From contig OZ007020.1 in assembly GCA_963931495.1 (NCBI GenBank), positions 450,001 to 482,000 of the forward strand: 32,000 bases of DNA, written 5' to 3'. Made by a program: the position numbers and the translations under genes. The notes under the pieces are model-generated. The model had not been told where the DNA came from. It ran no database searches and saw only the letters and a list, made by a program, of their open reading frames with translations. Positions 1 to 25,589 of the stretch are shown here, in pieces. The stretch is from an uncultured Alphaproteobacteria bacterium (lineage in GTDB: Bacteria > Pseudomonadota > Alphaproteobacteria > Rs-D84). The first letter of the stretch is position 1. Each line of letters opens with the position of its first letter.

Positions 1-189
1 GTCCAGATCATACGGTGTCATTTCAACACGAACATTTTCGCCGACGTTCACCCAGATGCGTGCCTTGCGCATTTTGCCACATACGGTTGCCAATATTTCG
101 TGGCCATTGTCCAAGCGAACACGGAACATTGTGTTTGGTAATTTATCAACCACAGTGCCACTGAAAACAATTACATCATCTTTTGCCAT
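1..189 (-). CDS. infA: translation initiation factor IF-1, N-terminal 63 codons (3' end runs off the window)
   Basis: The reverse complement from ATG 189-187 reads [63 protein letters not shown]. This is collinear with E. coli IF-1 ([30 protein letters not shown]...). It is absent from the ORF track because there is no stop codon in the window. Confidence 0.9.
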
Positions 190-271
190 TTATAATCCTT
201 GGTATTTACTGTAAAATCATGGCGGTAATTGTATTATTGCGAATAAAAAAAAGCAAGATGTTTTTATGTGC

Positions 272-300
272 TTGCACGGGATGGATTGTTTTGATAAAAT
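272..300 (+). promoter_or_regulatory. sigma70-like promoter candidate for the 332..2500 gene
   Basis: TTGCAC (272-277), a 17-nt spacer, then TAAAAT (295-300), about 30 nt upstream of ATG 332. Sequence pattern only. Confidence 0.4.
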
Positions 301-331
301 TCTATGTAAAGTAATATGTAGGGTGGATTCT

Positions 332-2500
332 ATGAAACTTGGATTTTTTTTAGCCACATTGTTTTTAATCCCTGGAATTGTTAACGCCGCAGATCGCACG
401 TCGGCCAGTTCGGTGCGTGTTGGTGCCAATCGGGCGTCCCAGGTTGGCGCGCGAATGCCGACAATGACGGCCAATGTCGGTGGCGGTACAGTTGAACAGT
501 CGGCTGTGTTGACGGTGAATCCACTGACCCCCAGTCCAAGTGTTGTGGAATCTGAATCTGATGATGGGGCGGATGATTCTTCGTCGGGGGGCGCGGATAC
601 AGAAATCGTTGCAAACAGCCAGTCGTGTCGTGATGCATATCGGGCGTGTATGGATGAATTTTGTTTGCTGGATGAATCCGAGGGGAATCGTTGTGCGTGT
701 TCTGCAAATATAAACCAGGCAAAACCACTTATCCAAGAAATACAAGAAATTCAAGAAGAAGCAGATTTGCTGTATACCGAAGGGGTTGAACGTGAACAAC
801 TGGGGGGCCAGGCGCGGTTGGTATTCGGTGAAAGCGAAGCGGCACAAAAAAGTTCGCGCGTGTCGGGCATCAGCTTTGCAGATCGGATAAATATGGGGAC
901 AGAACAAGAAGATGCCGGTTTGGGCGCAGATTATGATATTGGTGAAGGGCTGTATATGATGGCGGCAGAATTCTGTGCAGACAAATTGGCGGCCTGTGGT
1001 GATGATGCCCAGATGGAAGAAATATTGTATTCACGTTTAATTGTTCAAGATTGTAAAAATTATGAATCTTATTTGAATGACCAAAAATCTATTGCGGAAT
1101 CAAATAAACGCACAGCCGAAGCGGCCGTGCGCCAGGCGCGTTTAGATATGCTGGATACAACAAACAAGTATAATCGCGGCGAATGTTTATTGGCGTATCG
1201 TTCTTGTATCGCGGACAAGGGTGGCTGCGGCGTTAATTTTGAAAACTGTTTGGATGCAGATTTGCTGCAACGCCGTGCAAATGCGTGTGAAAATGTTTTG
1301 GATCAATGCATGGCTGTGCGTGAATACGTCTTGCAGGACTGGGAAGCCGAAGCGGTTTCTATACTGGCGGATGCGGAAAAATATGCTGATCGGTATGCAC
1401 GTCAAACGTGCTTGTCACGGATACAGTTGTGTTTGGAAGACGGCTGTTCAACCAGTACGAATTCAGCATGTTTAACAGATGTTAATGTTGCCGCCGGTGT
1501 TTGCCCGGTTATTGATGAATGTGAAGCGATGATACCTGGTATCAAGGCGGTTGTTAATGACAAGTTGGGTTATCTGCGTACACAATTCTGTCAAAATGAT
1601 GTTGACCAATGTTTGCGTGACCGCTGTGGCGAAAACTTTACTGCGCCGGAATGTGTCGGAAAAAGTGCGCGTGAAATTGCCGAACTGTGTCCCCAGGATA
1701 TGTTCCCGTCATGTAATAATGAAACGCAATTTGATATCATTGTGAATGCGGCATTGTTGCAAATGGATTACCAGATGTTACAAGGCTGTTTGAATTATTT
1801 CAGTCAACAGTTGGGTGCGGTTTGCGGGACAGATATGTCGTGTCTGCCGACAGATACGTTGGTGACGTCGTTGACAGAAATTCCAGATAACCAGGAAGAT
1901 TTGGCCGCATTGCGTGAAACGTTGCGTGAAAATACAGAATTGTCGGTGGACGAATTCTTTGAACAGTTTGAACAGGATAAAACCGTGGCGGCGTGCCAAA
2001 GCAGTCAACGTCCGGCTGGTGAAAAAAGTCTGGGGGACAGTGTATTTACCAGTGCGAAGATGATTGCCCAAATTGGTGCAGAAAATCGTGCAATGCGTGC
2101 GCTGGAATCCAAGATCGCGGAACTGTCGCGTGAACAGGATTTGGCCGCGGCCGAAGAAAATTGTTATAATACTTACCAGGTTGAAAGCCCGGATGAATCC
2201 AGCAAAAATTACAGTTATATTCGCAGTGTGACATTTGAACCGGCGTTGCGTAATTGTCATGTCTGTCGTGTTCAACAGGTGTGTGAAACCGGTGGCCAGA
2301 ATGAATGGACTGGCGCAATGCAGGGATTGGCCGGTGGATTGGCCGGTGGGGCATCAATGGGAACAATGGTGTCGCCTGGTTGGGGAACGTTGATTGGCGG
2401 TGTCGTTGGCGCGGTTGGTGGCGGACTGGTCGGCGGACTGGGCAGTGGCCAAGAAGAATTCTGTCAAGAAATTGAAACGTGTGAAGATATTAATATGTAA
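332..2500 (+). CDS. secreted cysteine-rich coiled-coil protein with a C-terminal glycine-zipper segment (family unknown); paralogue of 2552..5056
   Basis: This is ORF-track frame 266..2500, with the start moved to ATG 332. That start gives a Sec-type signal peptide, MKLGFFLATLFLIPGIVNA|ADR. The mature part has an S/D-rich linker followed by many Cys in conserved blocks (SCRDAYRACMDEFCLLDESEGNRCACS, NKYNRGECLLAYRSCIADKGGCGVNFENC, CENVLDQCMAVREYV) separated by E/Q/A/L-rich helices. The tail is GLAGGLAGGASMG...GGVVGAVGGGLVGGLG and the protein ends ...CQEIETCEDINM. Confidence 0.85.
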   Translation: MKLGFFLATLFLIPGIVNAADRTSASSVRVGANRASQVGARMPTMTANVGGGTVEQSAVLTVNPLTPSPSVVESESDDGADDSSSGGADTEIVANSQSCRDAYRACMDEFCLLDESEGNRCACSANINQAKPLIQEIQEIQEEADLLYTEGVEREQLGGQARLVFGESEAAQKSSRVSGISFADRINMGTEQEDAGLGADYDIGEGLYMMAAEFCADKLAACGDDAQMEEILYSRLIVQDCKNYESYLNDQKSIAESNKRTAEAAVRQARLDMLDTTNKYNRGECLLAYRSCIADKGGCGVNFENCLDADLLQRRANACENVLDQCMAVREYVLQDWEAEAVSILADAEKYADRYARQTCLSRIQLCLEDGCSTSTNSACLTDVNVAAGVCPVIDECEAMIPGIKAVVNDKLGYLRTQFCQNDVDQCLRDRCGENFTAPECVGKSAREIAELCPQDMFPSCNNETQFDIIVNAALLQMDYQMLQGCLNYFSQQLGAVCGTDMSCLPTDTLVTSLTEIPDNQEDLAALRETLRENTELSVDEFFEQFEQDKTVAACQSSQRPAGEKSLGDSVFTSAKMIAQIGAENRAMRALESKIAELSREQDLAAAEENCYNTYQVESPDESSKNYSYIRSVTFEPALRNCHVCRVQQVCETGGQNEWTGAMQGLAGGLAGGASMGTMVSPGWGTLIGGVVGAVGGGLVGGLGSGQEEFCQEIETCEDINM

Positions 2501-2551
2501 TTTGGGCGTTTGTCCAAATTACATGTTTTCTTGTTGTCGGAGAGAGTATAA

Positions 2552-5056
2552 ATGTTAATAAAAAAATTTGTTCTGTCTGTAATGGGGATTTTTGCATTCG
2601 TTGGAACGCAAAATGCGTTTGCTGTGGCGCGAACAACAACGCAATCTGCAATCCAACAAGGAACAACGGTTCGTACAAAAATAGAAGCCGTCGGTTTATA
2701 TGACCAGGCCTGTTATGATGCGTATTTTGGATGTATGGACCAGTTTTGTATCATTGATAATGCAAATGGTGGCGCGTGCGGGTGCAGTGATGACAGTATT
2801 GAATATGAACAGGAATTTGCCGCGATTCAAGAAATTTTGGATGAAGCCACACGTTTGCGCACCGAAGAGGTTGAACGTGTTCAGGCCGGCGCAAATGCAG
2901 ATATTATATTTTCTGGGGAACGCAGATATGATGCAGACGGAAATATTATTGATGACGAAGAATTAAGTGCCGAAGAACAAAAGGCCCAAGAACGCGCAGA
3001 ATTGTTGGCGCTGTTTAATACCAGCATTTATGACGAACCAGAAGAAGATACAACAACCAGCATTGCGGATATGGTTGGTGACGAACTGTATCGCACGGCC
3101 GATGAATTGTGCGTGGCCCAGGTGCCGGATTCTTGTGCCGGGGATATTGATTTCTTGCGTCAATTATATTCGCGGCAAATTACGTCGGACTGTTTGGGGT
3201 ACAAGAATTCATTAACGGCGAAGCGGGCCGAAGCAGAACTGGATTTGGCAGATGCAGAAGCAGCAGTACGTGCGGCATTACAGGAAAGTTTTGAAAGTGC
3301 AAATAAATATGATTTGGGACAGTGTATGGTTGAATTCAAAAAGTGTATGCAGACCGAAGACGCATGTGGTGAAAACTGGGAAAACTGTGTCGCAACCATT
3401 GCCGCAGAAAATATGCAAAATAATGCCGCGGTCAGTACAGCTGGAACAGTTGCGGAATCTGTGGATACGTACAATATTACCGAATCAACAATGGACATAT
3501 TGAATACTAAACGTCCAATTTGTGAAAATGTTTTGGCCCAGTGTGTGGCTGTGCGTGATATGGTGTGGCCAAATTTCTTGAAAGAGGCCGCGCCCACAAT
3601 TCGGGTGGCGGAATTACAGGCAGAATCAAAATTCCGTCAGTCTTGTTTAACAACAATTTCTGAATGTATTACAACCGCGTGTCGCGATGATATTGCCGGC
3701 AAAGGCGTTGCCACCATGGATGCATGTTTGTCACGTCCGGAAATGGCGCGCAGTTTCTGCAAGGTTGAAATTGATCCGTGTGAACGTATGGAACCGCTGA
3801 TTTGGGGATATGTAGAAGACAAATTGGCGGCAATGCGTGTTGACGCATGTACACAAGAAGTCAAAGATTGCTTTACCGCCGACACGCGCTGTGGGGCAAA
3901 TTTTGAAAACTGTATTGGTATGGATTATGACTATATCCATGAAATGTGCCCAATTGACAGTCTGGTCGTGTGCAAGGCAAATAATCCGAATTTTTCCATG
4001 GACGATTTGGATTCTATGTTGATGGGATTGTATCTGAATATTGATAATGCAATGCTGGACCAGTGTCAAAACTTGGTTGACCAGAAAATGGCGGAAATTT
4101 GCGGCAGTACAACTGATTGTAACCGGTTTGCTGCGGATGATACAATTGGTACTGGTTCACTGCGGTCGCAGAAAGATGGCGATGTGTATCGGGTAACCGG
4201 AATGATTTCGTTCGGCAGTATTAAGATGGGTGACGCGTCTGGCCAAATGACAACATTAAATGCGGATGGTGATACCGTTAAACTGGGGCCTGGTGAAATT
4301 GGTGTTGGGGAATATATCGCAAAAATACGTGAACAAAATGCCGATGTTCCAAATGCGGATGCAATTATAAATACAATTGAAGAAGAATTGAATAATATCG
4401 CGGGGACAATTAATCGCACAATCGCGATGATAGAAGAAGATCCGGAAATTCAATATTGCGTCAGTGGACGCGACCTGTCGCAGATAACTGGTGATGATGG
4501 TGCCACGACCGAAGCGCGCTTTCCGAACCTGTTGAACCAGGTGAAAATGCAAATCGCGGTTTCTGCGTTGCGCCAGGCACAAGACAATTATAATAACAAA
4601 TTGAATACGGCGATTGCGGATGCAACCAAAAATGCATCTGCCGACATCGCGCAATACATGTGCCAGAAAATTGCAGAAAATGGCGGAAATATGCTTGCCA
4701 GTGATGCAATTGCACAGTCAACGTCGTTAAATGTTCCATATGCAATCAGTTATGATGTTGGTACAGGGTTGACCGCCGAAGACTTAACACGTGGTGGTGC
4801 CGGCGTTGTCCAGGCGGGTGGCATGACATTCAAAAATGAGGCATATTTAGGTGGCGGATCTGGACTGGAAGGCGATGGTATGACCAAAGAGGTGACAGCT
4901 GTCTTTAATCGTGATACGCGTACATGTCATATCTGTACCACTATAACGACACAAAATTGTGAAACAACCGGCAGCGTCAGTTGGTTCCACAATAACCGTA
5001 ATGTTAATTGTACAACGGAAACGTCTGGACCGGTTTGTGAAGATATTGTGATGTAG
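2552..5056 (+). CDS. secreted cysteine-rich coiled-coil protein (family unknown); paralogue of 332..2500
   Basis: A GGAGAGAG Shine-Dalgarno-like run lies just upstream of ATG 2552. The signal peptide is MLIKKFVLSVMGIFAFVGTQNAFA|VA. Its Cys blocks align with the upstream gene: ACYDAYFGCMDQFCIIDNANGGACGCS, NKYDLGQCMVEFKKCMQTEDACGENWENC, CENVLAQCVAVRDMV, QSCLTTISECITTAC. It ends ...SGPVCEDIVM, compared with CEDINM in the paralogue. Confidence 0.85.
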   Translation: MLIKKFVLSVMGIFAFVGTQNAFAVARTTTQSAIQQGTTVRTKIEAVGLYDQACYDAYFGCMDQFCIIDNANGGACGCSDDSIEYEQEFAAIQEILDEATRLRTEEVERVQAGANADIIFSGERRYDADGNIIDDEELSAEEQKAQERAELLALFNTSIYDEPEEDTTTSIADMVGDELYRTADELCVAQVPDSCAGDIDFLRQLYSRQITSDCLGYKNSLTAKRAEAELDLADAEAAVRAALQESFESANKYDLGQCMVEFKKCMQTEDACGENWENCVATIAAENMQNNAAVSTAGTVAESVDTYNITESTMDILNTKRPICENVLAQCVAVRDMVWPNFLKEAAPTIRVAELQAESKFRQSCLTTISECITTACRDDIAGKGVATMDACLSRPEMARSFCKVEIDPCERMEPLIWGYVEDKLAAMRVDACTQEVKDCFTADTRCGANFENCIGMDYDYIHEMCPIDSLVVCKANNPNFSMDDLDSMLMGLYLNIDNAMLDQCQNLVDQKMAEICGSTTDCNRFAADDTIGTGSLRSQKDGDVYRVTGMISFGSIKMGDASGQMTTLNADGDTVKLGPGEIGVGEYIAKIREQNADVPNADAIINTIEEELNNIAGTINRTIAMIEEDPEIQYCVSGRDLSQITGDDGATTEARFPNLLNQVKMQIAVSALRQAQDNYNNKLNTAIADATKNASADIAQYMCQKIAENGGNMLASDAIAQSTSLNVPYAISYDVGTGLTAEDLTRGGAGVVQAGGMTFKNEAYLGGGSGLEGDGMTKEVTAVFNRDTRTCHICTTITTQNCETTGSVSWFHNNRNVNCTTETSGPVCEDIVM

Positions 5057-5063
5057 TGTATTT

Positions 5064-5090
5064 GACCCGCCAACGGCGGGTCTTTTATTT
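5064..5090 (+). terminator. rho-independent terminator after 2552..5056
   Basis: Stem GACCCGCC (5064-5071), loop AAC, stem GGCGGGTC (5075-5082), followed by TTTTATTT. Confidence 0.7.
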
Positions 5091-5610: not shown

Positions 5611-5812
5611 CGCAACAATGTGTTATTGTTGTGTGGCTTCACATCCACTGCAAAGCATCGCGATATGCGATGAAAAATTCTCCAACCAATCCGGGTTGGA
5701 GGGGTCTTGAATATATATTGAATAAAGACCGCAATTCTTTGCAGTTGTTGTGAACCTCCAACCACTTGAATTTATTTCCGGTGGTTTTTTGTTGCAAAAA
5801 TGGGGGTCAAAG
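5611..5812 (+). promoter_or_regulatory. structured 5' leader, copy A; candidate riboswitch or attenuator-like element
   Basis: There are four pairing segments: seg1 CTCCAACC (5680-5687), seg2 GGTTGGAGG (5694-5702), seg3 CCTCCAACC (5755-5763) and seg4 GTGGTT plus a T-run (5781-5790). Hairpin P2 is GGTCTT[GAATATATATTGAATA]AAGACC (5703-5730). Hairpin P3 is 5731-5742. The SD TGGGGG lies at 5801-5806. See the findings for the model. Confidence 0.5.
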
Positions 5813-6388
5813 ATGAAAAAGATATTTGTCGCCATTGTCGCGTGCATGATCTGCAACGTTGGTTGGGGTATTAATTGGGTTTGTGAAATAGACCAGTGTG
5901 ATAAAGGAACTTGGGCGCTAGATGATAATCCTTATAATAACCCATGTATGGTTTGCCCAGCCAACACATATCAAGATGGCTGTATTAATCTTGGTGAAGA
6001 GTGTACCCCATGTCCCGCGGGGACCGGCACGATTGGTGATACGGCGGCCCATCACGACAGTATTGATGATTGTATTCCGATGGAAACAGAAGAAATATCT
6101 TGTAATCCGGGATATTATTTACCCGCAAACAGTCAACAATGTACGCAATGTCCACGTAATCATTATTGTCCCGGTGGGACGTTTACAGAAACGACATCTG
6201 ATTCTGGGATAACACAATGTCCTGATAATATGTATTCACCACTGGGGTCAGATAGTGCGGATGATTGTGGGCGCGTGTTACATATTGGCGAATATATTTT
6301 ATATCTGCGCACGGCAAAACTGACCGTGCCATCACTGAATGTCCAGATTGGCAACACGATATATTACGGTGATATGTTCCCCGCGTAA
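5813..6388 (+). CDS. small secreted Cys-rich protein, paralogue A (ephrin-receptor-like/GCC2-GCC3-type CxxCP repeats)
   Basis: The start is moved from 5750 to ATG 5813, because the longer ORF would translate the leader hairpins. The signal peptide is MKKIFVAIVACMICNVGWG. The mature part has about 14 Cys in motifs CMVCPANTYQDG, CTPCPAGTGTIG, CTQCPRNHYCPGG and QCPDNMYSPLGSDSADDC. The C-terminal tail is CGRVLHIGEYILYLRTAKLTVPSLNVQIGNTIYYGDMFPA. Confidence 0.85.
   Translation: MKKIFVAIVACMICNVGWGINWVCEIDQCDKGTWALDDNPYNNPCMVCPANTYQDGCINLGEECTPCPAGTGTIGDTAAHHDSIDDCIPMETEEISCNPGYYLPANSQQCTQCPRNHYCPGGTFTETTSDSGITQCPDNMYSPLGSDSADDCGRVLHIGEYILYLRTAKLTVPSLNVQIGNTIYYGDMFPA
6002..6388 (+). repeat. left arm of a 387-bp inverted repeat (partner 14656..15042)
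   Basis: From TGTACCCCATGTCCCGCGGGG to the stop codon, the DNA is near-identical to the reverse complement of 14656..15042, with only a handful of substitutions by eye. Identity ends exactly at the stop codon. Confidence 0.85.
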
Positions 6389-7458: not shown

Positions 7459-8286
7459 ATGACTTGGACAATTTTAATCCTGGTGATTGGTATTCTGTTG
7501 TTCTTGTTCGGTGGTATGTTGCTGGGCAAGGGTGACGACAAAAAACCATCTGCGGGAAAAATCGTTGCAAACAAATCTATCACATTAATTGCGATTATTT
7601 TAATTGCAGGCAGCATGTGCCGTCTGTATACACCGTATTATCTGACCGCGGTTAACCCGGCAATTGTACAGGAAATGATTACAGGTATGCAGGAACAGCA
7701 ACAGGCGGAAAAGAACAAGCAAATTCGCAAGTATGTTCGCGAAGAAGGTGACAGAATGATGCGTGATGCGCCGGTTCTGGGTAATCGCGATGCGAAAAAG
7801 ACAATCTATGTCTGGACAGACTTTTCTTGCCCATTCTGCCGTCGGGTTCATGGTGAACTGGATCGCGTGATGGCGAATCGTGATGATTTCCGCGTTGTTG
7901 TAAAGAACTTCTCTATCCATGGGGCTTTGTCTGATGCGCCGGCCAAGGCAGTTATTGCAGCAAACCTGCAAGATCCAGAAAAGGCCGCGGAACTGACAGA
8001 CATGCTGATGACGCGTGAATATTATACGCAAGCAGATTTGGAAGACCAAGCCAACGTGGCAGACAAGGTTGAAGCAAATGTTATGAAATTTGCCAAAGAA
8101 GTTGGATTGGATACAGAAAAATTGAAAGAAGATATGAACGGCGAAGTTGTTGCACGCGAATTGAGAAATGTACGTGATTTGGCACAACGCTTTGAAATCA
8201 ATGGTACACCGTTCTTGATTATCGGTGAACAGGCGTTCCCGGGTGCAATCCCAGCGGATCAAATTGAAGCCGCATTGAATGAATAA
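7459..8286 (+). CDS. membrane-anchored DsbA-family thiol:disulfide oxidoreductase
   Basis: An AAAGGAGAAAATA Shine-Dalgarno region precedes the ATG. There is an N-terminal TM helix (WTILILVIGILLFLFGGMLL). The thioredoxin-fold active site is WTDFSCPFCRRVH (CPFC). The C-terminal ...INGTPFLIIGEQAFPGA is typical of the DsbA family. Confidence 0.85.
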   Translation: MTWTILILVIGILLFLFGGMLLGKGDDKKPSAGKIVANKSITLIAIILIAGSMCRLYTPYYLTAVNPAIVQEMITGMQEQQQAEKNKQIRKYVREEGDRMMRDAPVLGNRDAKKTIYVWTDFSCPFCRRVHGELDRVMANRDDFRVVVKNFSIHGALSDAPAKAVIAANLQDPEKAAELTDMLMTREYYTQADLEDQANVADKVEANVMKFAKEVGLDTEKLKEDMNGEVVARELRNVRDLAQRFEINGTPFLIIGEQAFPGAIPADQIEAALNE

Positions 8287-9966: not shown

Positions 9967-10878
9967 ATGAAGTTCTTATACGGTGTTTTTATTGGGGTAA
10001 TGGCTGTTTTGCCGAATCTTGCCCATGGGGCGGGTTTTGTTACGCATACTGTTATGTGGGATGTTGAAGATACGCCTGATATAGGTGGCCAGGATGCATA
10101 TGATGAATATATGAAGGGCCTGTTTTGCAAAGATGGTGCCGGTGCGATAACTGTTGGTGAAAATGGTATAGAAGTATTATGTGAATCATGGAAAAGTGCA
10201 GAACCGGCAGATGCGGATATTAAAAGTGCCCATGGAATTGCGCTGTGTCGTGCACAGTGTGCCGAAAATGGTGAAATATACGTGTCTGGCACGGGTGGTG
10301 ATGATTGCCGATGTCGGCCGGCCCCATCCCAGGACCCAGAAATAATTGAACTTGAAGCATCTGTAAACCGCCAGGTGGCCAGCCGTACAAATCGCCAGAT
10401 TAACAGGGATGTAAACAGTTTGGTTAATGAAGCGGACAAGGAGTTAAGCAGTCAAATTCGTGATGAATTGCGTAATCAAAAGTCCGATTTACGGGCGGGG
10501 GCGAAAGAATCTGATTCCGCAATGTCAGAACTGACGGCGGCGGTAAATCGCGACGTTCTGGAAAGCGAAATGAGAAATCCGGACATTGACCAGATTGATA
10601 GTGATGTCGCGAAAATGAATGAAGATCTAGATAAACAGCTGGACAAGCAACTGGAATGCGAAAGTCGTAATCCGCCAATGGGGGTAAAGAAAAACGCGCT
10701 GGGGTTGTGGGTTTGCACAGAAACAGAAGACACGATTGCGGCACGCGAGCAGAAAAAGGCAAATAACAAAGCCTTAAAGGCATTCTGGGACGATATTGAT
10801 GATATTGAACGTGCGTTTAATCGTCGCGTTCGTCAATTGCGTCGTGTGGCGAATGCAGATAATGGGGGCGACCAATGA
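9967..10878 (+). CDS. secreted protein with a Cys-containing N-terminal domain and a long charged coiled coil (unknown function)
   Basis: The start is moved to ATG 9967, giving signal peptide MKFLYGVFIGVMAVLPNLAHG|AG. The N-terminal domain contains ...CRAQCAENGEIYVSGTGGDDCRCRP. The rest is D/E/R/N/Q-rich helical sequence. The stop overlaps the next start (ATGA at 10875), suggesting translational coupling. Confidence 0.7.
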   Translation: MKFLYGVFIGVMAVLPNLAHGAGFVTHTVMWDVEDTPDIGGQDAYDEYMKGLFCKDGAGAITVGENGIEVLCESWKSAEPADADIKSAHGIALCRAQCAENGEIYVSGTGGDDCRCRPAPSQDPEIIELEASVNRQVASRTNRQINRDVNSLVNEADKELSSQIRDELRNQKSDLRAGAKESDSAMSELTAAVNRDVLESEMRNPDIDQIDSDVAKMNEDLDKQLDKQLECESRNPPMGVKKNALGLWVCTETEDTIAAREQKKANNKALKAFWDDIDDIERAFNRRVRQLRRVANADNGGDQ

Positions 10879-12545
10879 AACGAAATTTAATCGCCACATT
10901 AATGATGTTATTTCCCATTGTTGCGTTTGGGGGCCCAGATTTGTCGGCAATTGAATCAGCGCAAACAATGGATGAATTAAAGACGGCATATAAAGACGCG
11001 GTGGAAAATGTTATTACAGAAAACAAGGATAAAGTTGATTCATTTGAATTGATTTCTGCGCGCACACAGTACCAGGAAAATATAGTCGCGCTGGATGAAG
11101 ATGCGGCAACGTTAACAAATAACACGGATGCAAAAAATCAACAAAGTGAAGATGCCCCGGCAAAGATTCTTTCGCAAGAAGATTCGTTGGCCCAGATTTC
11201 GGAATTACAGGCGAATGCGGACGCGATGCGTGACAAAGAACAATCAACAGCGAACAAGATACTGGGGGCTGCCGGCATTGGTGCAACAGGTATTGGATTA
11301 ATGCAAACAGCATCTGCGTTGGCGCAACAGAATGCATCAAATGATGCGACACGCGATATGACGGCATACCTGGCAACATTCCGGTGTGACTATGGTTCTG
11401 GTCGCAACATCAGTGGTGGTGAAACGGGCATAACGTTACCTGGGGGGAACCAGTTATTACCACTGTATACAGAATATATAACATTGGCATCAGACTTAAA
11501 GACGCGTAAAGAAGCATTGGGATTAAGTCCTGGCATAGAATCCGAGATAATACAAGACAGTGCGACATCTGGGTTATACGACAATGTATCGTTGGGTCGC
11601 GGTGATGGTGTATATGTATCATTGGCGGCGGCGTTATCTGATCCGACTGGACCTGCGGCGGCGGCATGGGCGGCGCAACAATCTGCGACATCGGAACAAT
11701 TACAAACAGGTTTAATAACGGCTGGGGTTGGTACATTGGCCAGTATAATTGGCAATATTGCGATAAATGAAAACAAAAAATCACCCCAGAATTTAACTGA
11801 TGACATCATCGCAAAGTATGATGCCAAGCGTACGGTTATCAAAGAAGATTTGTCTGGAACCGAAGAAGATTCAAAACAAGATGCAGAAGATGCCGTGCCG
11901 GCGCCAGAAGATGGCAAGGCGCCGTCTGGAGGGCATACGGAATATTTGATTAATGCGCAACAGGCGTGTGAAGCGTTGTCTGGGAAATGGGATGCGGTTG
12001 CAGAAATATGTCATTGTGCGGGTTACCAAATATGGGATAACTATGCATTAACATGTCTGGATGATGACGCACCGTATGATGATGTGGTGCCCCAGCCGGT
12101 TAATAAACCAATTGTTACACTGTATGCGGAATCATTGTTTGACAGTGGCAAGGTACAGGTTAAATCACCAACAGATAAACTGGATGATGTGATTGATTCA
12201 ATAAAAAATGAAATTGCAACCGATACCGGGGTAGAAATATTGTTGGTTGCGCATACAGACAGTGACAAGATAATCCAAAGTGCAAATTTATGTGCGCGTG
12301 ATAAAATATGCACAAATCAATCACTGTCGGTGGCGCGGGCGGAATCTGTACGCGGTTATATTCAAAATAAATGGGCAGATATGCCGGCCGGTATAAGTAT
12401 AACAATTCGTGGTGTTGGTGATCAATGTGCCAATCCGAACAGTTCTGATGCGCAAAAAGCACTGGAACGCAAGGTTGATTTCTATGTGTTCTTTAACGGT
12501 GAAGACACGGATAATATTGATGTATGCAGTGTCGGAACAAATTGA
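10875..12545 (+). CDS. secreted or membrane protein with a divergent C-terminal OmpA-like domain (unknown function)
   Basis: The signal peptide is MKRNLIATLMMLFPIVAFGG. Internal Gly/Ala hydrophobic segments are present (ILGAAGIGATGIGLMQTASALA; GLITAGVGTLASIIGNIAI). The C-terminus reads ...LFDSGKVQVKSPTDKLDDVIDSI...EILLVAHTDSDKI...NQSLSVARAESVRGYI...ITIRGVGDQ...LERKVDFYVF. This follows the OmpA_C pattern (FdsGk...GHTD...N..LS..RA..V...G.G...NRRVe) with insertions. Confidence 0.75.
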   Translation: MKRNLIATLMMLFPIVAFGGPDLSAIESAQTMDELKTAYKDAVENVITENKDKVDSFELISARTQYQENIVALDEDAATLTNNTDAKNQQSEDAPAKILSQEDSLAQISELQANADAMRDKEQSTANKILGAAGIGATGIGLMQTASALAQQNASNDATRDMTAYLATFRCDYGSGRNISGGETGITLPGGNQLLPLYTEYITLASDLKTRKEALGLSPGIESEIIQDSATSGLYDNVSLGRGDGVYVSLAAALSDPTGPAAAAWAAQQSATSEQLQTGLITAGVGTLASIIGNIAINENKKSPQNLTDDIIAKYDAKRTVIKEDLSGTEEDSKQDAEDAVPAPEDGKAPSGGHTEYLINAQQACEALSGKWDAVAEICHCAGYQIWDNYALTCLDDDAPYDDVVPQPVNKPIVTLYAESLFDSGKVQVKSPTDKLDDVIDSIKNEIATDTGVEILLVAHTDSDKIIQSANLCARDKICTNQSLSVARAESVRGYIQNKWADMPAGISITIRGVGDQCANPNSSDAQKALERKVDFYVFFNGEDTDNIDVCSVGTN

Positions 12546-14655: not shown

Positions 14656-15042
14656 TTACGCGGGGAACATATCACCGTAATATATCGTATTGCCAATCTG
14701 GACATTCAGTGATGGCACGGTCAGTTTTGCCGTGCGCAGATATAAAATATATTCGCCAATATGTAACACGCGCCCACAATCATCCGCACTATCTGATCCC
14801 AGTGGTGAATACATATTATCGGGACATTGTGTTATCCCAGAATCTGCGGATGATTCTGTAAACGTCCCACCGGGACAATAATGATTACGTGGACATTGTG
14901 TGCATTGTTGACTGTTTGCGGGTAAATAATATCCCGGATTACAAGATATTTCTTCTATTTCCATCGGAATACAGTCATCAATACTGTCGTGATCGGCCGC
15001 CGTATCACCAATCGTGCCGGTCCCCGCGGGACACGGGGTACA
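14656..15042 (-). repeat. right arm of the 387-bp inverted repeat (partner 6002..6388)
   Basis: The reverse complement is near-identical to 6002..6388 and encodes CTPCPAGTGTIGDTAADHDSIDDC...GNTIYYGDMFPA. Confidence 0.85.
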
Positions 15043-15249
15043 AGAAAAGTATGTACCACTTTCTTCTTGATATGTATTCGTTGGGCAAGTGCAACACATA
15101 TATGCGCCTTCGCCATCTGCTGGCGATGGTGCATTATACATTCCCGCCTGGCAATTCGTCCCCCCCGGCCTGGCGGGTGGCATGCAAATGCCCCATGCTG
15201 AATTATATGCTGTACACACGACAACAATGGCGATAAATATCTTTTTCAT
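14656..15249 (-). CDS. small secreted Cys-rich protein, paralogue B
   Basis: The start is moved from 15327 to ATG 15249, giving signal peptide MKKIFIAIVVVCTAYNSAWG. The N-terminal roughly 55 mature residues (ICMPPARPGGTNCQAGMYNAPSPADGEGAYMCCTCPTNTYQEESGTYFS) are unrelated to copy A. The C-terminal 128 aa are almost identical to copy A. Confidence 0.85.
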   Translation of the reverse strand: MKKIFIAIVVVCTAYNSAWGICMPPARPGGTNCQAGMYNAPSPADGEGAYMCCTCPTNTYQEESGTYFSCTPCPAGTGTIGDTAADHDSIDDCIPMEIEEISCNPGYYLPANSQQCTQCPRNHYCPGGTFTESSADSGITQCPDNMYSPLGSDSADDCGRVLHIGEYILYLRTAKLTVPSLNVQIGNTIYYGDMFPA

Positions 15250-15440
15250 CTTTAACCCCCATTTTCGTAACAAAAAACCACCGGAAATAAATTCAAGTGG
15301 TTGGAGGTTAGCAACTATCAAATACAATAGTGTCGTTTATTCAATATATTCACGAACCCTCCAACCGCAAGGTTGGAGTATGCGTATTTGCGAGGTTGCT
15401 ACACCCCGTATCAGAAACTTTCTGATACGTTCGTATTATA
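15250..15440 (-). promoter_or_regulatory. structured 5' leader copy B, including a TATAAT -10 box
   Basis: On the - strand: TATAAT (15440-15435), seg1 CTCCAACC (15378-15371), seg2 GGTTGGAGG (15366-15358), seg3 CCTCCAACC (15307-15299), then the AACCAC/GTGGTT hairpin and T-run (15302-15272). The P2 loop GAATATATTGAATA is conserved, while the P2 and P3 stems differ from copy A but still pair. Confidence 0.5.
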
Positions 15441-21293: not shown

Positions 21294-24200
21294 ATGTCGC
21301 AGATTTTCGGGATTTTTAGAAATAGAAATATTGCTAAAATAACCGTTTACTTTTTTTTCTCTTTACTACTTTTGCTGTGCATTGTGCCTGATGGTTATGG
21401 GGCGGGTTATACATGCTCTGCGTCGTCCAAGAAATATACATCGTGCAAATCCGGGTATTACTTAAATGGTACCGGTGCCGGTAACAGTTGTTCAACATGC
21501 AGCAGTCTGGGTTATACATCATCTGCGAATGGTAATTCCAACGGTGCGGCGGCGTGTTATAAATCATGCACCAAAGCCTGTACGCGACAGACATGTCCAT
21601 CGTCAGCATACAGTTGCAGTCATGGCAGCACATCAACATCTGGGACACAGTATTATGGTGGTTCGTGCAGTGCCCCATCTTCAACATGTTCATTGACGAT
21701 AAACAGTTGCAAATCGGGATATTATAAGAACGGCAACAGCTGTGCAACATGCAGCAGTTTGGGTTATACGTCATCTGCGAATGGTAATTCCAACGGTGCG
21801 GCGGCGTGTTATAAATCATGTACCCGTGCGTGTACGCGACAAACATGTCCGTCAAATGCGACCTGTACCCATGGCAGTACATCAACCAGTGGTACCCAAT
21901 ATTACGGTGGTTCGTGCAGTGCGGCGTCATCCACATGTTCAATCAGCATATCTTGTAACTCAGGATATTACAAAAGCGGCAGCAGCTGTCCGGCCTGTAC
22001 GAGTGTCAGTGCGACGGACTTATCACAATCATGTTCACGCAATCCAACCAGCACGGAATTAAGTAACGCACATGCATACGCAGGTACAATCAGTGGTGCG
22101 AAGCAACAGTGTACTGGTAAACATACCGGTGGTGCGGGCGGAACAGCTGGCTCTGGGTCGTGCACCGGGTGCAGCAGTTGGGGTACATGCAGTGGCGGCA
22201 CATTAACCATTACATCATGTTCGGCGGGATATTATAAAGATGGTAATAGTTGCAAATCCTGTCCATCGGGGTATACATCTGCGAACGGTACAACGGGTGG
22301 CATTGGTTCGTGTTATATTAATGTATCTGCGGGTAATTATATTAAGGCAGCAAACAGTTCAACACAATCAACGTGTACGGCGGGGTATTGGAATCCGGCA
22401 CATACCGTGTACTATGGCAACACGTCTAGTTGTAATAAGTGCACAGGCACAACATATTCAGATACTGATGGCGCCAGCAGTTGCAAGCAATGCCCAACCG
22501 CAACAGAGTATGCCGACATAATAACAAGTTATTGGTATTGGTCAGAAGATGATATTCATGACACTATTGGTGGCTGTCGTGCCGAGTTTGATGAATCAGA
22601 TTCCAAGGGTTCGTACAATTACAGCTGTGCATATAAAAATGGTGATTATGGCGTTGCCGGTGGTGGTACCGGTACATGTATGGCGACGAAACCAAATTCT
22701 TGTGCTGCGACATATTATTGGCCGGGTGGAGATTCTAATATTTGGGCGGGCAATCGTGCGGAATTGTTAACGCAAATGTGTTCCAGTGTTGGCAAGGGAT
22801 ATTGGTCGGCGGCCGGTTCTTTGACCCGCAGCCAGTGTCCAGCGAACTATCGCGATGGCGCGGCGGCGGGCAGTCAGGCGGGTTGCAAGACCAGTTGTGC
22901 GGCCGGGACATATGTAAAGACAGCAAATGCAGCGTGTACATCTGTTGGCACGGGATATTACCGTGCTGCGCATACGGTAAGTTACGGCAGCACCAGTACC
23001 CGCAGCCAGTGTCCAGCGAACTATCGCGATGGCGCGGCGGCGGGCAGTCAGGCGGGTTGCAAGACCAGTTGTGCGGCGGGAACATACGTTGCGACAGCGA
23101 ATGCAGCGTGTACGTCGGTTGGTACGGGATATTATCGTGCGGCGCATACGGTAAGTTACGGCAGCACCAGTACCCGCAGCCAGTGTCCAGCGAACTATCG
23201 CGATGGCGCAGCGGCGGGCAGTCAAAATAACTGTATTGGTATATTTGAAAAAACAGGTGGCCAGAATAATCCGACCAAACCGACGGGTTGTGCAACGATG
23301 GAATACGCATCATCGTGTACACCGCCAACGTGTGAATATCAAAAGAACTATGCGGGTACTGTTGTTAAAGATTGTACGCCCGGGAATTGTACCAAGGCGA
23401 TAACAAAACTGACGGCAAATGCCGACAGATATGTGAATGGCACAACGTCTTGTCCGGCGTGCAGCAGTTACAGCAGTACGTACACCAAGTCAGATGGCGG
23501 CAGTATTACGTATAACTCTTGTTATATTACCAGAAGCAAGACGGGCAGCCAGGTTAACGGCAGTACGCCCAGTGGGTGTGCCAGTGTGACGGCATGGTAC
23601 GCATGTACGCCCGGCACGTGCACATACAAGGACTATTTGGGTCAGACTGGTGAAACATGCACGCCATCAAACTGTACTAAGTCGCCAAAGACGGTTACGG
23701 CAAAGGAGAATTACTATGTCAGTGGTGCAACATGTCCGGCGTGCAGCAGTTACAGCAGTACATACACCAAGTCAGATGGCGGCAGTATTACGTATAACTC
23801 TTGTTATATTACCAGAAGCAAGACGGGCAGCCAGGTTAACGGCAGTACGCCCAGTGGGTGTGCCAGTGTAACGGCGTGGAATGCATGTACGCCCGGCAAA
23901 TGTACGTACAAAGACTATTTGGGTCAGACAGGTGAAACCTGTACCCCATCAAACTGCACGAAAACGCCAAAGACAGTTAGGGCCAAAGAGAATTACTACG
24001 TCAGTGGTACGTCTTGTCCGGCATGCAGCAGTTACAGCAGTACATATACCAAGTCAGATGGTGGTTCAATAAGCAGTGCATATTGTTACCGAACAGCCAC
24101 CAAGACGGGCAGTCAGGTTAATGGCAGTACGCCCAGTGGGTGTGCCAGTGTAACGGCGTGGAATGCATGCACCCCCGGCACATGTACGTACAAGGACTAT

Positions 24201-25589
24201 GCCAGTGCGACGGATACAACATGTACACCGTCAAACTGCACAAAAACGCCAAAGACGGTTACGGCAAAGGAGAATTACTATGTCAGTGGTACGTCTTGTC
24301 CGGCGTGCAGCAGTTACAGCAGTACATACACCAAGTCAGATGGCGGTTCAATAAGCAGTGCATATTGTTACCGAACAGCCACCAAGACGGGCAGCCAGGT
24401 TAATGGCAGTACGCCCAGTGGGTGTGCCAGTGTAACGGCATGGAATGCATGCACGCCCGGCACATGTACGTACAAGGACTATGCCAGTGCGACGGATACA
24501 ACATGTACACCGTCAAACTGCACAAAAACGCCAAAGACGGTTACGGCAAAGGAGAATTACTACGTCAGTGGCACGTCCTGTCCAACATGCCCAACGGGGT
24601 ATCCGAACTCGGATGGTGGTACGGGTGGTGTAACGGTGTGTTACAGTAATACAAAATCCCGTGCATGGACCGGCAGCCAGGTTAACGGCAGTACGCCCAG
24701 TGGGTGTGCCAGTGTAACAGCGTGGAATGCATGTTCCAAGCCGGCATGTAGTTATGTTGCGTATTCCAACAGTGCTGGTACGGGCGATGGCGAAATAAAA
24801 AGTGGATGCAGCAGTAATAGCGCCAGTTGTACCAAGACCCCAAAGACAGTTACGGCCAAGGAGAATTACTATGTCAGTGGCACGTCCTGTCCAACATGCC
24901 CAACGGGGTATCCGAACTCGGATGGTGGTACGGGTGGTGTAACGGTGTGTTACAGTAATACAAAATCCCGTGCATGGACCGGCAGCCAGGTTAACGGCAG
25001 TACGCCCAGTGGATGTGCCAGTGTAACAGCGTGGAATGCATGTTCCAAGCCGGCATGTAGTTATGTTGCGTATTCCAACAGTGCTGGTACGGGCGATGGC
25101 ACAATAAAGAGTGGTTGCAGCAGTAATAGCGCCAGTTGCACAAAAAACCCAAAGACGGTTACGGCCAAGGAGAATTACTATGTCAGTGGCACGTCCTGTC
25201 CGACATGTCCGACGGGGTATCCGAACTCGGCGGGTGGGAACATTGGTCAAAGCATGTGCTATAAGACATGTGAAGACATAGACATTACCGGTGGGACGAA
25301 TGTACCGACCAGTGGCACGGCGTATTATGGCAACAGTTGCACATATACGACGGTTTGTGACGATGGGTATAATCTGACGGGGACAAACACGTGCAGCCAG
25401 TTATGTACACTGGGTGTGACCAGTCTGCGTACGGGTAATGGTGTGACGATACCGTTGTACAGTTCGGCATTATCCACACCATCGTTAAACATTGGTACTG
25501 GTGGTGGTGTATGCTATGGCATATTGGAAAGTGGTGCGGGAACACTGAACATCCAATATGACGGCAAAACGTATCACGCGGTGGATTAA
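21294..25589 (+). CDS. giant secreted Cys/Ser/Thr/Gly-rich repeat protein (CxxC-GYY modules; VSP-, furin- or GCC2-GCC3-like)
   Basis: A single uninterrupted 1431-codon ORF with a GGAGGG SD. The N-terminal hydrophobic signal or anchor is ...ITVYFFFSLLLLLCIVPDGYG|AGYTC. It is modular throughout: CKSGYY.NG.SC.TCSS, CKSCPSGYTSANG, SQCPANYRDGAAAGSQAGCKTSCAAGTYV, SCPACSSYSSTYTKSDGG, SCPTCPTGYPNSDGG. The C-terminus shares the LRT...PSLN(I/V)...YG module with the small paralogues. Confidence 0.85.
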   Translation: MSQIFGIFRNRNIAKITVYFFFSLLLLLCIVPDGYGAGYTCSASSKKYTSCKSGYYLNGTGAGNSCSTCSSLGYTSSANGNSNGAAACYKSCTKACTRQTCPSSAYSCSHGSTSTSGTQYYGGSCSAPSSTCSLTINSCKSGYYKNGNSCATCSSLGYTSSANGNSNGAAACYKSCTRACTRQTCPSNATCTHGSTSTSGTQYYGGSCSAASSTCSISISCNSGYYKSGSSCPACTSVSATDLSQSCSRNPTSTELSNAHAYAGTISGAKQQCTGKHTGGAGGTAGSGSCTGCSSWGTCSGGTLTITSCSAGYYKDGNSCKSCPSGYTSANGTTGGIGSCYINVSAGNYIKAANSSTQSTCTAGYWNPAHTVYYGNTSSCNKCTGTTYSDTDGASSCKQCPTATEYADIITSYWYWSEDDIHDTIGGCRAEFDESDSKGSYNYSCAYKNGDYGVAGGGTGTCMATKPNSCAATYYWPGGDSNIWAGNRAELLTQMCSSVGKGYWSAAGSLTRSQCPANYRDGAAAGSQAGCKTSCAAGTYVKTANAACTSVGTGYYRAAHTVSYGSTSTRSQCPANYRDGAAAGSQAGCKTSCAAGTYVATANAACTSVGTGYYRAAHTVSYGSTSTRSQCPANYRDGAAAGSQNNCIGIFEKTGGQNNPTKPTGCATMEYASSCTPPTCEYQKNYAGTVVKDCTPGNCTKAITKLTANADRYVNGTTSCPACSSYSSTYTKSDGGSITYNSCYITRSKTGSQVNGSTPSGCASVTAWYACTPGTCTYKDYLGQTGETCTPSNCTKSPKTVTAKENYYVSGATCPACSSYSSTYTKSDGGSITYNSCYITRSKTGSQVNGSTPSGCASVTAWNACTPGKCTYKDYLGQTGETCTPSNCTKTPKTVRAKENYYVSGTSCPACSSYSSTYTKSDGGSISSAYCYRTATKTGSQVNGSTPSGCASVTAWNACTPGTCTYKDYASATDTTCTPSNCTKTPKTVTAKENYYVSGTSCPACSSYSSTYTKSDGGSISSAYCYRTATKTGSQVNGSTPSGCASVTAWNACTPGTCTYKDYASATDTTCTPSNCTKTPKTVTAKENYYVSGTSCPTCPTGYPNSDGGTGGVTVCYSNTKSRAWTGSQVNGSTPSGCASVTAWNACSKPACSYVAYSNSAGTGDGEIKSGCSSNSASCTKTPKTVTAKENYYVSGTSCPTCPTGYPNSDGGTGGVTVCYSNTKSRAWTGSQVNGSTPSGCASVTAWNACSKPACSYVAYSNSAGTGDGTIKSGCSSNSASCTKNPKTVTAKENYYVSGTSCPTCPTGYPNSAGGNIGQSMCYKTCEDIDITGGTNVPTSGTAYYGNSCTYTTVCDDGYNLTGTNTCSQLCTLGVTSLRTGNGVTIPLYSSALSTPSLNIGTGGGVCYGILESGAGTLNIQYDGKTYHAVD
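21444..21953 (+). repeat. in-frame tandem repeat, two units of about 252-264 bp
   Basis: TGCAGCAGT(C/T)TGGGTTATAC...AATGGTAATTCCAACGGTGCGGCGGCGTGTTATAAATCATG occurs at 21498 and 21750. The units start at TGCAAATC(C)GGG, at 21444 and 21708. Confidence 0.8.
22827..23230 (+). repeat. in-frame tandem repeat, 174-bp period, about 2.3 units
   Basis: The anchor CGCAGCCAGTGTCCAGCGAACTATCGCGATGGCGC is at 22827, 23001 and 23175. The units encode SQCPANYRDGAAAGSQAGCKTSCAAGTYV.TANAACTSVGTGYYRAAHTVSYGSTSTR. Confidence 0.85.
23385..25230 (+). repeat. in-frame tandem repeat array with 282-bp (x4-5) then 309-bp (x2) periods
   Basis: The anchor AGTACGCCCAGTGG is at 23562, 23844, 24126, 24408, 24690 and 24999, giving spacings of 282, 282, 282, 282 and 309. 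Neighbouring units such as 24126-24330 and 24408-24612 differ at only a few positions. Confidence 0.9.

Follow-up and report, generated by a model that had tools for sequence, protein, structure and literature searches.

Two adjacent genes for paralogous exported proteins

The sequence analysed here (the window) comprises 32,000 nucleotides (nt) of contig OZ007020.1, from an uncultured member of the Alphaproteobacteria (order Rs-D84). Near its left end, on the forward strand, lie two large adjacent genes whose products we term P1 and P2. All positions are those of the window; L-numbers denote loci of relatives. The P1 gene (332..2500) encodes 722 amino acids (aa) plus a stop codon within an open reading frame (ORF) spanning 266..2500; the ATG at 332 is preceded by AGGGTGGA, which resembles a ribosome-binding site, and orthologues begin at the same Met. 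The P2 gene (2552..5056) encodes 834 aa plus a stop codon and stands behind a Shine-Dalgarno-like GGAGAGAG (2539..2546, forward strand); GGAGAGAG or GAGAGAG is also found ahead of P2 orthologues.

Both proteins begin with a hydrophobic window and a predicted Sec signal peptide. In P1 this covers residues 1-19 (332..388), with signal peptidase I (SPase I) predicted to cleave between MKLGFFLATLFLIPGIVNA and AD (VNA/AD); in P2 it covers residues 1-24 (2552..2623), with cleavage predicted between MLIKKFVLSVMGIFAFVGTQNAFA and VA (AFA/VA). There is no lipobox Cys in either protein and no Cys at +1 in P1, and all P1-type members share the architecture of the P1 signal peptide. A BLASTP comparison aligns P1 and P2 at 32% identity over 476 aa (E 1e-56), showing that the two are paralogues. 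The original prediction, made from the sequence alone, had described a tandem of 722- and 834-aa genes with Sec signal peptides, a 51-nt spacer, block-by-block similarity and a common C-terminal motif. The ORFs, translations and hydrophobic N-termini bear this out: the spacer is 51 nt, all five quoted blocks were found in the alignment and the proteins end in CEDINM (P1) and CEDIVM (P2).

A large family without described relatives

In an index of 5.8 billion sequences P2 matches 1320 proteins and P1 matches 958. The best 120 matches to each are 74-100% identical, all unnamed, and none carries a precomputed Pfam domain; the sole source name recovered among relatives is 'hypothetical protein [Alphaproteobacteria bacterium]'. 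When 1.84 billion cluster representatives were searched exhaustively with HMMER and a joint P1 and P2 profile, matches were obtained to 887 clusters (defined at 50% identity) at E <= 1e-3, 684 at E <= 1e-10 and 259 at E <= 1e-30. Nearly all of 150 cluster representatives have a signal peptide, 700-1100 aa and 30-46 Cys. The features that define the family are the signal peptide, a first block of the form C-x6-C-M-D-x-F-C-x9-C-x-C-S, a six-Cys module described below, some 30-40 conserved Cys and, frequently, a C-[ED]-D-[IV]-x-[MF] end; P1 and P2 carry every one of these, and the features hold across 130 members.

That the pair belongs to an unrecognised family, as originally proposed, is borne out by profile searches, which assigned neither protein to a characterised family: scans against Pfam, NCBIfam, PADLOC and PHROGs gave no match above threshold for P1 or P2, and profile searches of all sequences in the PDB gave best E values of 1.1-1.4. 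Pfam scans of 23 P1-type and 15 P2-type members produced no consistent family besides weak glycine-zipper matches. Matches of P1 to PHROG tape-measure and endolysin families (E 0.003-0.1) involve the Gly-rich segment only and were rejected as compositional. A scan of viral contigs returned no relatives of P1 or P2, on which ground a phage or mobile origin was rejected. In the literature searched no paper mentions these proteins, and the papers on Enterousia are genomic surveys only. As judged from sequence, P1 and P2 belong to a large, undescribed family that is, as far as sampled, confined to the Alphaproteobacteria and mostly found in Candidatus Enterousia / Rs-D84.

The cysteine framework

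P1 and P2 each contain exactly 36 Cys, and these are not spaced as composition would predict: pairs at i,i+7 number 8 in P1 (expected 1.7 ± 1.2) and 10 in P2 (expected 1.5 ± 1.2), the maxima over 5000 shuffles being 6 and 7, respectively. The same bias marks the family at large. Among the 150 representatives a gap of seven is by far the commonest between consecutive Cys, with 1408 cases, the runner-up spacing having 327. Among 130 aligned, diverse members, whose mean column identity is just 12%, 13 of the P2 Cys columns are invariant and a further 19 are conserved at 90% or more; very few other residues are as conserved. The conserved Cys positions of the original prediction are thus upheld, 32 of the 36 P2 columns reaching at least 90%, and the outcome is the opposite of Cys being lost among orthologues. 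Most of these residues lie in a core, which holds 31 of the 36 Cys in P1 (residues 96-614, its Cys columns invariant or at least 90% conserved) and 29 in P2 (residues 52-523). C792 and C803, near the C-terminus of P2, are also at least 90% conserved.

Part of the framework has arisen by internal duplication. An hhalign comparison of P2 with itself matches the profile of residues 45-345 to that of residues 346-530 (probability 93%, E 3e-7), and the duplicated unit is the six-Cys module C-x6-C-x6-CG-x-[DN][FWY]-x2-C ... C-x6-C. The first copy lies at residues 258-331 (3323..3544, forward strand; C-x6-C-x6-CG-x-N[WF]-x2-C ... C-x6-C) and the second at residues 433-474 (3848..3973, forward strand), the pattern being borne out by regular-expression matches. 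The module also occurs in two other exported proteins, encoded beside the P2-type gene of L082, a distant relative.

The original prediction had envisaged an exported fold stabilised by disulfides. The Cys conservation that this calls for is present; the disulfides themselves we infer from the signal peptides, the even Cys count, the heptad spacing on predicted helices and the presence, 2.4 kb downstream of P2, of a gene for a membrane-anchored DsbA-like thioredoxin (7459-8286, forward strand). It is also conceivable that the Cys stay reduced in the anoxic gut, where they would bind metals or clusters or buffer the redox state of the periplasm. The host is a strict fermenter without respiratory chains (PMC12306168), which makes the classical DsbB-quinone route doubtful; C-H-[IV]-C and additional Cys of the C-terminal sheet together look like a small metal site; and only 56% of the long family members have an even number of Cys. 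Against this, C-x6-C and C-x6-C-x6-C-x6-C on helices fit no Fe-S, zinc-ribbon or metallothionein signature, no metal-binding Pfam family was matched, and the count of 36 is even in both P1 and P2. In addition, a DsbA-like gene has been retained near the pair in a genome of less than 1 Mb, and in L089 it (934-1773, forward strand) directly follows the P2-type gene. On this evidence we consider reduced, metal-binding or redox-buffering Cys very unlikely.

Predicted structures

AlphaFold2 (AF2) models were built with family alignments. The mean predicted local distance difference test score (pLDDT) is 82.8 for P2, with 398 residues at 90 or above, and 75.4 for P1. The predicted template modelling score (pTM) is about 0.5 for both (0.46-0.51), and the packing of the domains is therefore uncertain. 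Following 40 disordered residues, P2 is predicted to fold into a Cys-rich helical core (residues 52-523, 2705..4120, forward strand; pLDDT mostly 85-96) that is homologous to residues 97-504 of P1 by BLASTP and contains helices up to 52 residues long. Next comes a middle alpha/beta domain of four short strands plus helices (residues 524-710, 4121..4681, forward strand; pLDDT about 90-97 over most of its length), which an alignment gap shows to be partly missing from P1. The protein closes with a C-terminal beta-sheet domain (residues 733-834, 4748..5053, forward strand) with the pattern CHIC...C...C...CEDIVM and a terminal strand at 828-833.

In P1, residues 13-95 are disordered and the Cys-rich core (residues 96-614, 617..2173, forward strand; pLDDT mostly 80-96) is almost all-helical. 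The core is followed by two strands (627-653), a glycine-rich helical hairpin (654-706) and a terminal strand (709-721); the segment comprising this strand (residues 709-722, 2456..2497, forward strand; EFCQEIETCEDINM) bears the conserved C-terminal motif. In both models the Cys sit in confidently predicted helices.

Foldseek at E <= 0.001 found no PDB match for either model and no BFVD match for P2. The C-terminal sheet bears weak local resemblances to CapZ and to levivirus coat proteins, with TM 0.2-0.38 and E > 0.2, which fall short of significance. On these models the novelty is one of family and of predicted fold (relative to the PDB and, for P2, also to BFVD), not of mechanism. No beta-barrel is predicted in P1 or P2, each of which has a small, Cys-containing sheet of three to six strands on a helical body. 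Readings of the proteins as lipoproteins or autotransporters, or as carrying a trimeric-autotransporter anchor or an outer-membrane-protein (OMP) beta-signal, were rejected on sequence and model.

The glycine-rich segment and the protein ends

The glycine-rich hairpin of P1 (residues 654-706, 2291..2449, forward strand; GLAGGLAGGASMGTMVSPGWGTLIGGVVGAVGGGLVGGLG) lies between the last two beta-strands and has its Kyte-Doolittle peak at residues 685-703. It has the make-up of a glycine zipper, namely a turn flanked by two short hydrophobic helices in which GxxxG/AxxxG recurs, the helix-turn-helix being an AF2 prediction of low confidence. Residues G655, G677, G685 and G697 are invariant in P1-type members. 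The segment divides the family in two: among the 150 representatives some 17 are P1-type, nearly all with a zipper 30-70 residues before the end, and the P2-type has no counterpart, a few members showing unrelated Gly-rich stretches. The original claim that P1 but not P2 has such a segment is therefore correct.

The further claim of similarity to glycine-zipper proteins such as the Rickettsia 17-kDa antigen is reasonable as an analogy, although the segment stays below threshold for every Pfam zipper model (PF13441, PF13488 and PF05433): its match to Gly-zipper_YMGG scores 16.9 bits against a cut-off of 28.9 (E 0.005). Weak matches in the 23 P1-type members are to Gly-zipper_YMGG (six), Gly-zipper_Omp (five; best E 1.7e-4) and Rick_17kDa_Anti (one). 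What P1 has in common with SlyB/PCP, YfgH, YMGG and the Rickettsia antigen is a hydrophobic hairpin of two helices, rich in GxxxG and alike in length and composition. Unlike these lipoproteins, P1 has no lipobox, its matches all fall below gathering thresholds, and its zipper, rather than forming the core of a small lipoprotein, is inserted as a short stretch close to the C-terminus of a Cys-rich protein of 700 aa.

A hairpin of this kind raises the possibility that P1 oligomerises through its zipper into a channel, as do VacA-type zippers and class IIc bacteriocins, with P2 as its soluble partner; such a channel might serve nutrient uptake or permeabilise a partner cell. The invariance of the zipper glycines, weak matches of P1-type members to Bacteriocin_IIc (5 of 23) and C19orf12 (3 of 23) in addition to the Gly-zipper families, and the lack in Rs-D84 of standard sugar, amino-acid and peptide transporters (PMC12306168) would fit. 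We nonetheless regard a membrane-active complex as highly improbable. The Bacteriocin_IIc, C19orf12 and Gly-zipper matches are all sub-threshold and driven by Gly/Ala composition, and the zipper makes up about 7% of P1, leaving unexplained the other 93%, a Cys-stapled body common to P2. Nor is there an immunity-gene-like partner, a polymorphic C-terminus, a mobile context, a relative on viral contigs or a match to defence or phage families (PADLOC, PHROGs).

Each protein also carries a conserved linear motif close behind its signal peptide. In P1 this is RVGANRASQVGARMPTMTANV (residues 29-49, 416..478, forward strand), which lies within the disordered tether at low pLDDT; its P1-type consensus, R-V-G-x-x-R-x-S-Q-x-G-A-R-[MA]-P-[TSN]-M, is kept down to 37% identity. 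In P2 it is RTTTQSAIQQGTTVRTKIEAVG (residues 27-48, 2630..2695, forward strand), again of low pLDDT in the monomer model, with the consensus A-R-A-A-x-[TK]-Q-[KS]-V-[IV]-x-x-G-T-[KT]-V from column counts in an 80-sequence alignment. Sites of contact with other molecules typically show up as conserved motifs left unplaced by a monomer model, and the two motifs are plausible candidates for such sites.

The P1 motif, in the form ...Q-x-x-A-R-M-P-T-M..., recurs right after the signal peptide of an otherwise unrelated Cys-rich glycine-zipper protein (L082 13003-15249, L083 12046-13833), and outside the P1-type the RMPTM motif was found only at the N-terminus of that protein. This protein, of 595/748 aa, was tried as a divergent P1 and is not a homologue: hhalign aligns the N-terminal motif only (34 columns, probability 66%). 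The motif may be a shared sorting or attachment tag.

At the other end, the last residue is Met in 41 of the 150 representatives and Phe in 16. An [IVLFY]-x-[MFYLI] end, typically C-[ED]-D-[IV]-x-M, is found in 61, and 14 more have I-x-M a few residues from the end. Outer-membrane proteins of Brucella are attached to peptidoglycan via an N-terminal Ala-Asp. Mature P1 starts with AD, and most of its orthologues with AT or AE; attachment of this type was set aside.

Distribution and gene order

One genome per GTDB species was scanned with a degenerate pattern, which located relatives in 346 stretches; the counts of distribution and gene order given here refer to the best 80 of these. They come from metagenome-assembled genomes (MAGs) named Candidatus Enterousia, 'uncultured Alphaproteobacteria', 'Rickettsiales' or 'proteobacterium', obtained from human, chicken, horse and ruminant guts. 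One contig deposited as 'Bacteroides fragilis' (L056, CAVGNU010000011.1) has infA, P1 and P2 in this order at 64-70% identity; its synteny, which is that of Enterousia, makes mis-binning of an Enterousia contig almost certain. The window itself encodes a CcrM-type methyltransferase, which is typical of Alphaproteobacteria. Enterousia genomes, of about 0.75-1.0 Mb, specify no respiration and an incomplete glycolysis, lack many biosynthetic pathways as well as the standard sugar, amino-acid and peptide transporters, and encode many hypothetical membrane proteins; a partner-dependent lifestyle has been proposed (PMC12306168).

Wherever an Enterousia-type locus is long enough to show it (about 75 species), the order is infA on the reverse strand, then P1, then P2, and in roughly half the next gene is the BOF gene that also follows P2 in the window. 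Orthologues are 59-78% identical for P1 and 62-79% for P2, the latter being present in 80 species genomes. Median identities (68-69% for P1 and P2, compared with 92% for InfA, 69% for BOF and 61% for RecO) indicate a housekeeping tempo rather than that of a variable antigen.

In the wider family the genes adjoin infA, secG or rpoA-rplQ. The P1→P2 tandem is kept in L084/L085 (P1 39% and P2 47% identical), flanked by secG and a PHP phosphatase gene, and in L087/L088, beside secG and an autotransporter gene. In L089 the P2-type gene is followed directly by the DsbA gene, the P1-type gene lying 5 kb further on. In L082/L083, one of which is labelled Rickettsiales, a P2-type gene without a P1-type neighbour stands after rpoA-rplQ and adjoins genes for other Cys-rich exported proteins, one with a glycine zipper. 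These P2-type-bearing lineages also contain ankyrin-repeat genes (GC 37%), and in one of them a reverse transcriptase gene has been inserted between rpoA and rplQ (L083 4933-5388 and 18800-18994, L082 5975-7039 for these features together); ankyrin-repeat and reverse transcriptase features are typical of eukaryote-associated symbionts.

Relatives have, beyond infA, a third, divergent paralogue of the P1/P2 family (L001 2785..5295 and L087 1332-3455, both on the reverse strand); that of L001 matches the family profile with an hhalign probability of 99.2% (E 1e-19). This protein, of about 824 aa, has a signal peptide, a long Arg/Thr-rich low-complexity region at its N-terminus, the family first block CRDAYFTCMDQFC and an Ephrin-like Cys-rich C-terminal part. 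By synteny, a copy in the genome studied here would lie just left of window position 1.

The lifestyle and surroundings of the pair suggest one further function, in which a putative obligate symbiont or parasite displays P1 and P2 on its surface, or releases them from it, as disulfide-hardened adhesins or contact structures directed at a partner cell, be it a bacterium, a gut protist or host mucus. Disulfide-rich folds fit extracellular life; the neighbourhood is rich in eukaryote-like Cys-rich exported proteins (those with Ephrin_rec_like matches and a 1431-aa repeat protein, described below); ankyrin-repeat genes in related lineages and autotransporters beside the pair point the same way; and for Enterousia, hypothetical membrane proteins have been proposed to mediate interaction with the cells on which it depends (PMC12306168). 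However, neither P1 nor P2 has an autotransporter barrel or a known C-terminal sorting domain (Pfam, NCBIfam, AF2), and the survey of Rs-D84 genomes mentions no pili or secretion apparatus (PMC12306168), a silence that does not in itself show their absence. Moreover, the median identity of 68-69% and the strict single-locus synteny look like those of housekeeping genes and not of a fast-evolving surface antigen, in contrast to the neighbouring Ephrin-like and repeat proteins, which are duplicated and repetitive. A role in contact with a partner cell is in our view somewhat unlikely.

Transcription signals

The divergent intergenic region between infA and P1 contains a tentative sigma-70-like promoter, TTTATA-17-TAAAAT (189..217, forward strand), which was identified by pattern only and has 9 of 12 consensus matches. 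Downstream of P2 an intrinsic terminator (5064..5090, forward strand) reads GACCCGCC-AAC-GGCGGGTC followed by TTTTATTT; its stem (5064-5082, followed by the T run) has 8 bp, of which seven are G-C pairs. It closes the P1-P2 unit and separates P2 from the BOF gene. A scan with Rfam in and around P1-P2 gave nothing.

The spacer had been described as containing only a weak hairpin, and this is contradicted. The hairpin at 2492..2527 (forward strand) spans the stop codon of P1, with a U-rich tract behind it. It has a stem of 15-16 bp and a folding energy of -21.7 kcal/mol (z = -5.6), and none of 200 shuffles folds as well. It is possibly an attenuator or an mRNA-end structure inside the operon. 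Co-transcription of the two genes, as originally suggested, is likely given the conserved tandem, the spacer of often 15-30 nt and a terminator after P2 only, with the qualification that so strong a hairpin with a U-rich tail could attenuate read-through. Of the 40 orthologous loci listed, about a third (L002, L006-L010, L014-L016, L020, L025 and L034) have hairpins at the P1 stop, with different stem sequences and energies of -14 to -28 kcal/mol; the other loci have a bare spacer of 15-30 nt. This variation may reflect lineage-specific tuning of the P1:P2 ratio.

A possible envelope scaffold

P1 and P2 may together form a periplasmic, disulfide-stapled, mostly helical and membrane-anchored scaffold of the envelope. 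This is the reading we prefer, tentatively, and we give it somewhat less than an even chance of being right. After export, a DsbA-type oxidase would pair the conserved Cys, 36 per protein, in as many as 18 disulfides each. Cys at i,i+7 on one helix face would staple neighbouring helices, like those of CHCH twin Cx9C proteins, yielding rigid, mostly helical bodies. The two bodies would then associate via their homologous cores, and the complex would be held at a membrane by the glycine-zipper hairpin of P1; the periplasmic face of the outer membrane is our best guess. The N-terminal motifs on their disordered tethers, and the terminal strand with C-E-D-I-x-M, would contact envelope components or neighbouring subunits. 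The outcome would be a structural scaffold in a bacterium with a genome of less than 1 Mb and an unusually Cys-rich exported proteome.

The argument for DsbA-dependent stapling draws on export, the even Cys count, the i,i+7 geometry, the nearby DsbA-like gene and the five strongly Cys-rich exported proteins encoded in the window. Retention in the envelope is suggested by the absence from P1 and P2 of any outer-membrane translocation device, anchoring by analogy with glycine-zipper proteins of the SlyB/YfgH type, which are outer-membrane-embedded stabilisers (bioRxiv 10.64898/2025.12.22.696046, 10.64898/2026.06.08.730324), and a structural housekeeping role by analogy with the disulfide-linked envelope of Chlamydiae, which is made with DsbA/DsbB (PMC6752827).

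Several points weigh against the scaffold. The host is an anaerobe that has no respiratory chain (PMC12306168) and so lacks the usual DsbB-quinone sink for the re-oxidation of DsbA. Contact between P1 and P2 is suggested by paralogy and gene order only, and the P2-type gene of L082/L083 has no P1-type neighbour. The glycine-rich segment is modelled at a pLDDT of 33-47 and lies below every Pfam glycine-zipper gathering threshold, and pTM values of only 0.46-0.51 leave the overall shape uncertain. Finally, Rs-D84 genomes keep MreB, RodA and PBP2 (PMC12306168), and SLT and OmpA-domain genes lie in the window. The cells must therefore have peptidoglycan, and they show no obvious need of a protein exoskeleton.

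Chlamydial OmcA and OmcB (with MOMP) are likewise Cys-rich, Sec-exported envelope proteins of a host-dependent bacterium with a reduced genome that has kept a Dsb oxidoreductase, and their presumed role is that of a disulfide-linked structural network (PMC6752827). P1 and P2 differ in giving no Pfam, NCBIfam, PDB profile or Foldseek (E <= 0.001) match, and hence none to domains of the Chlam_OMP6/DUF11 type, and in being predicted mostly helical with heptad-spaced Cys. In addition, Enterousia, unlike Chlamydiae, appears to keep normal peptidoglycan machinery (PMC12306168).

A second comparison is with the design principle of helix stapling. In the CHCH-domain twin Cx9C proteins found in the mitochondrial intermembrane space, two Cys per helix face are each bonded to a Cys on an antiparallel helix and are oxidised once the protein has entered an oxidising compartment. 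The predicted helices of P1 and P2 suggest the same principle, with Cx6C in place of Cx9C, dozens of Cys in place of four, a tenfold larger protein and no Pfam CHCH match; the CHCH system depends on Mia40, whereas the system considered here is bacterial and would depend on Dsb.

In the Hcp proteins of Helicobacter (Sel1-like repeats), which are secreted or periplasmic helical repeat proteins, disulfides bridge helix pairs. Both groups come from host-associated proteobacteria, but repeat length and Cys pattern differ; Pfam Sel1/SLR models match neither P1 nor P2, nor any of another 22 P1-type and 14 P2-type members, and no helical-repeat structure came up when the P1 and P2 models were searched with Foldseek. 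As for outer-membrane beta-barrels and autotransporters, P1 and P2 have no barrel and no OMP or autotransporter Pfam match. By sequence and fold, P1 and P2 are members of none of the OmcA/OmcB, SlyB-type, CHCH or Hcp groups.

A bolder version of the envelope scaffold, which we regard as speculative and unlikely, would make P1, P2 and the third paralogue the core of a new envelope lattice or rod system, built of heptad-disulfide-stapled helices in a new fold and inserted in a membrane by a glycine-zipper hairpin, with short N-terminal tags (of the R-M-P-T-M and Q-S-V-I-x-x-G-T-K-V types) and a conserved terminal strand to address or interlock the parts, and essential for the partner-dependent lifestyle of Rs-D84/Enterousia. 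In that case the N-terminal tag, which also occurs on unrelated Cys-rich proteins with glycine zippers, would represent a new signal for sorting or attachment in the envelope.

The P1/P2 family is of interest on several counts. Candidatus Enterousia / Rs-D84 is widespread in human, poultry, horse and ruminant guts, has never been cultured and has genomes of less than 1 Mb; at 4.7 kb, the P1 and P2 genes account for about 0.5% of such a genome (taken as roughly 0.9 Mb). The conserved locus, the housekeeping pace of change and the diversification into hundreds of clusters make it very likely that the proteins are important to the cell. For structural biology they represent a new, predicted architecture of heavily disulfide-stapled helices with a repeated six-Cys module; for envelope biology, a candidate alternative way of reinforcing or organising the diderm envelope, possibly with new targeting motifs; and for work on microbiomes, a protein marker or antigen that is specific to the lineage, conserved and probably abundant.

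Neighbouring genes

The gene downstream of P2 (5168..5539) encodes a YgiW/BOF OB-fold protein, in agreement with the YgiW-type protein originally predicted there: it matches PF04076 with 105 bits (cut-off 25.8; E 2e-30) and NF033674 with 122 bits (cut-off 35; E 1e-35).

Other exported proteins of the window are also rich in Cys. Two paralogous genes of inverted orientation (5713-6388, forward strand, and 14656-15349, reverse strand) encode Cys-rich exported proteins of 191 and about 198 aa, one of which has a Pfam Ephrin_rec_like match (E 1.4e-7). The two share a 387-nt arm that is 96% complementary and a 126-nt arm at 86%, and provide a substrate for inversion or gene conversion; the roughly 8.3 kb between them contain recO, the dsbA-like gene, rplI, two genes for Cys-containing envelope proteins and a MotA/MotB-like pair. 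Further along (21294-25589, forward strand) lies a gene for an exported protein of 1431 aa with 116 Cys (8.1%) and no Pfam match at 1e-3; the gene is made up of tandem repeats that are 174, 282 and 309 nt long and 82-94% identical. The C-terminal tail of the protein resembles that of both Ephrin_rec_like proteins, and the protein is eukaryote-like (TNFR/ephrin/VSP style) and probably variable.

A gene at 10875-12545 (forward strand) encodes an exported protein of 556 aa with a C-terminal OmpA-like domain. It contains the segment ...EYITLASDLKTRKEALGLSPGIESE..., which is also found in a Cys-repeat protein encoded within the Cys-rich gene cluster of a distant relative (L083 14436-16442, reverse strand). 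The shared segment is a hint that the P1/P2 family is accompanied by a larger set of envelope proteins.

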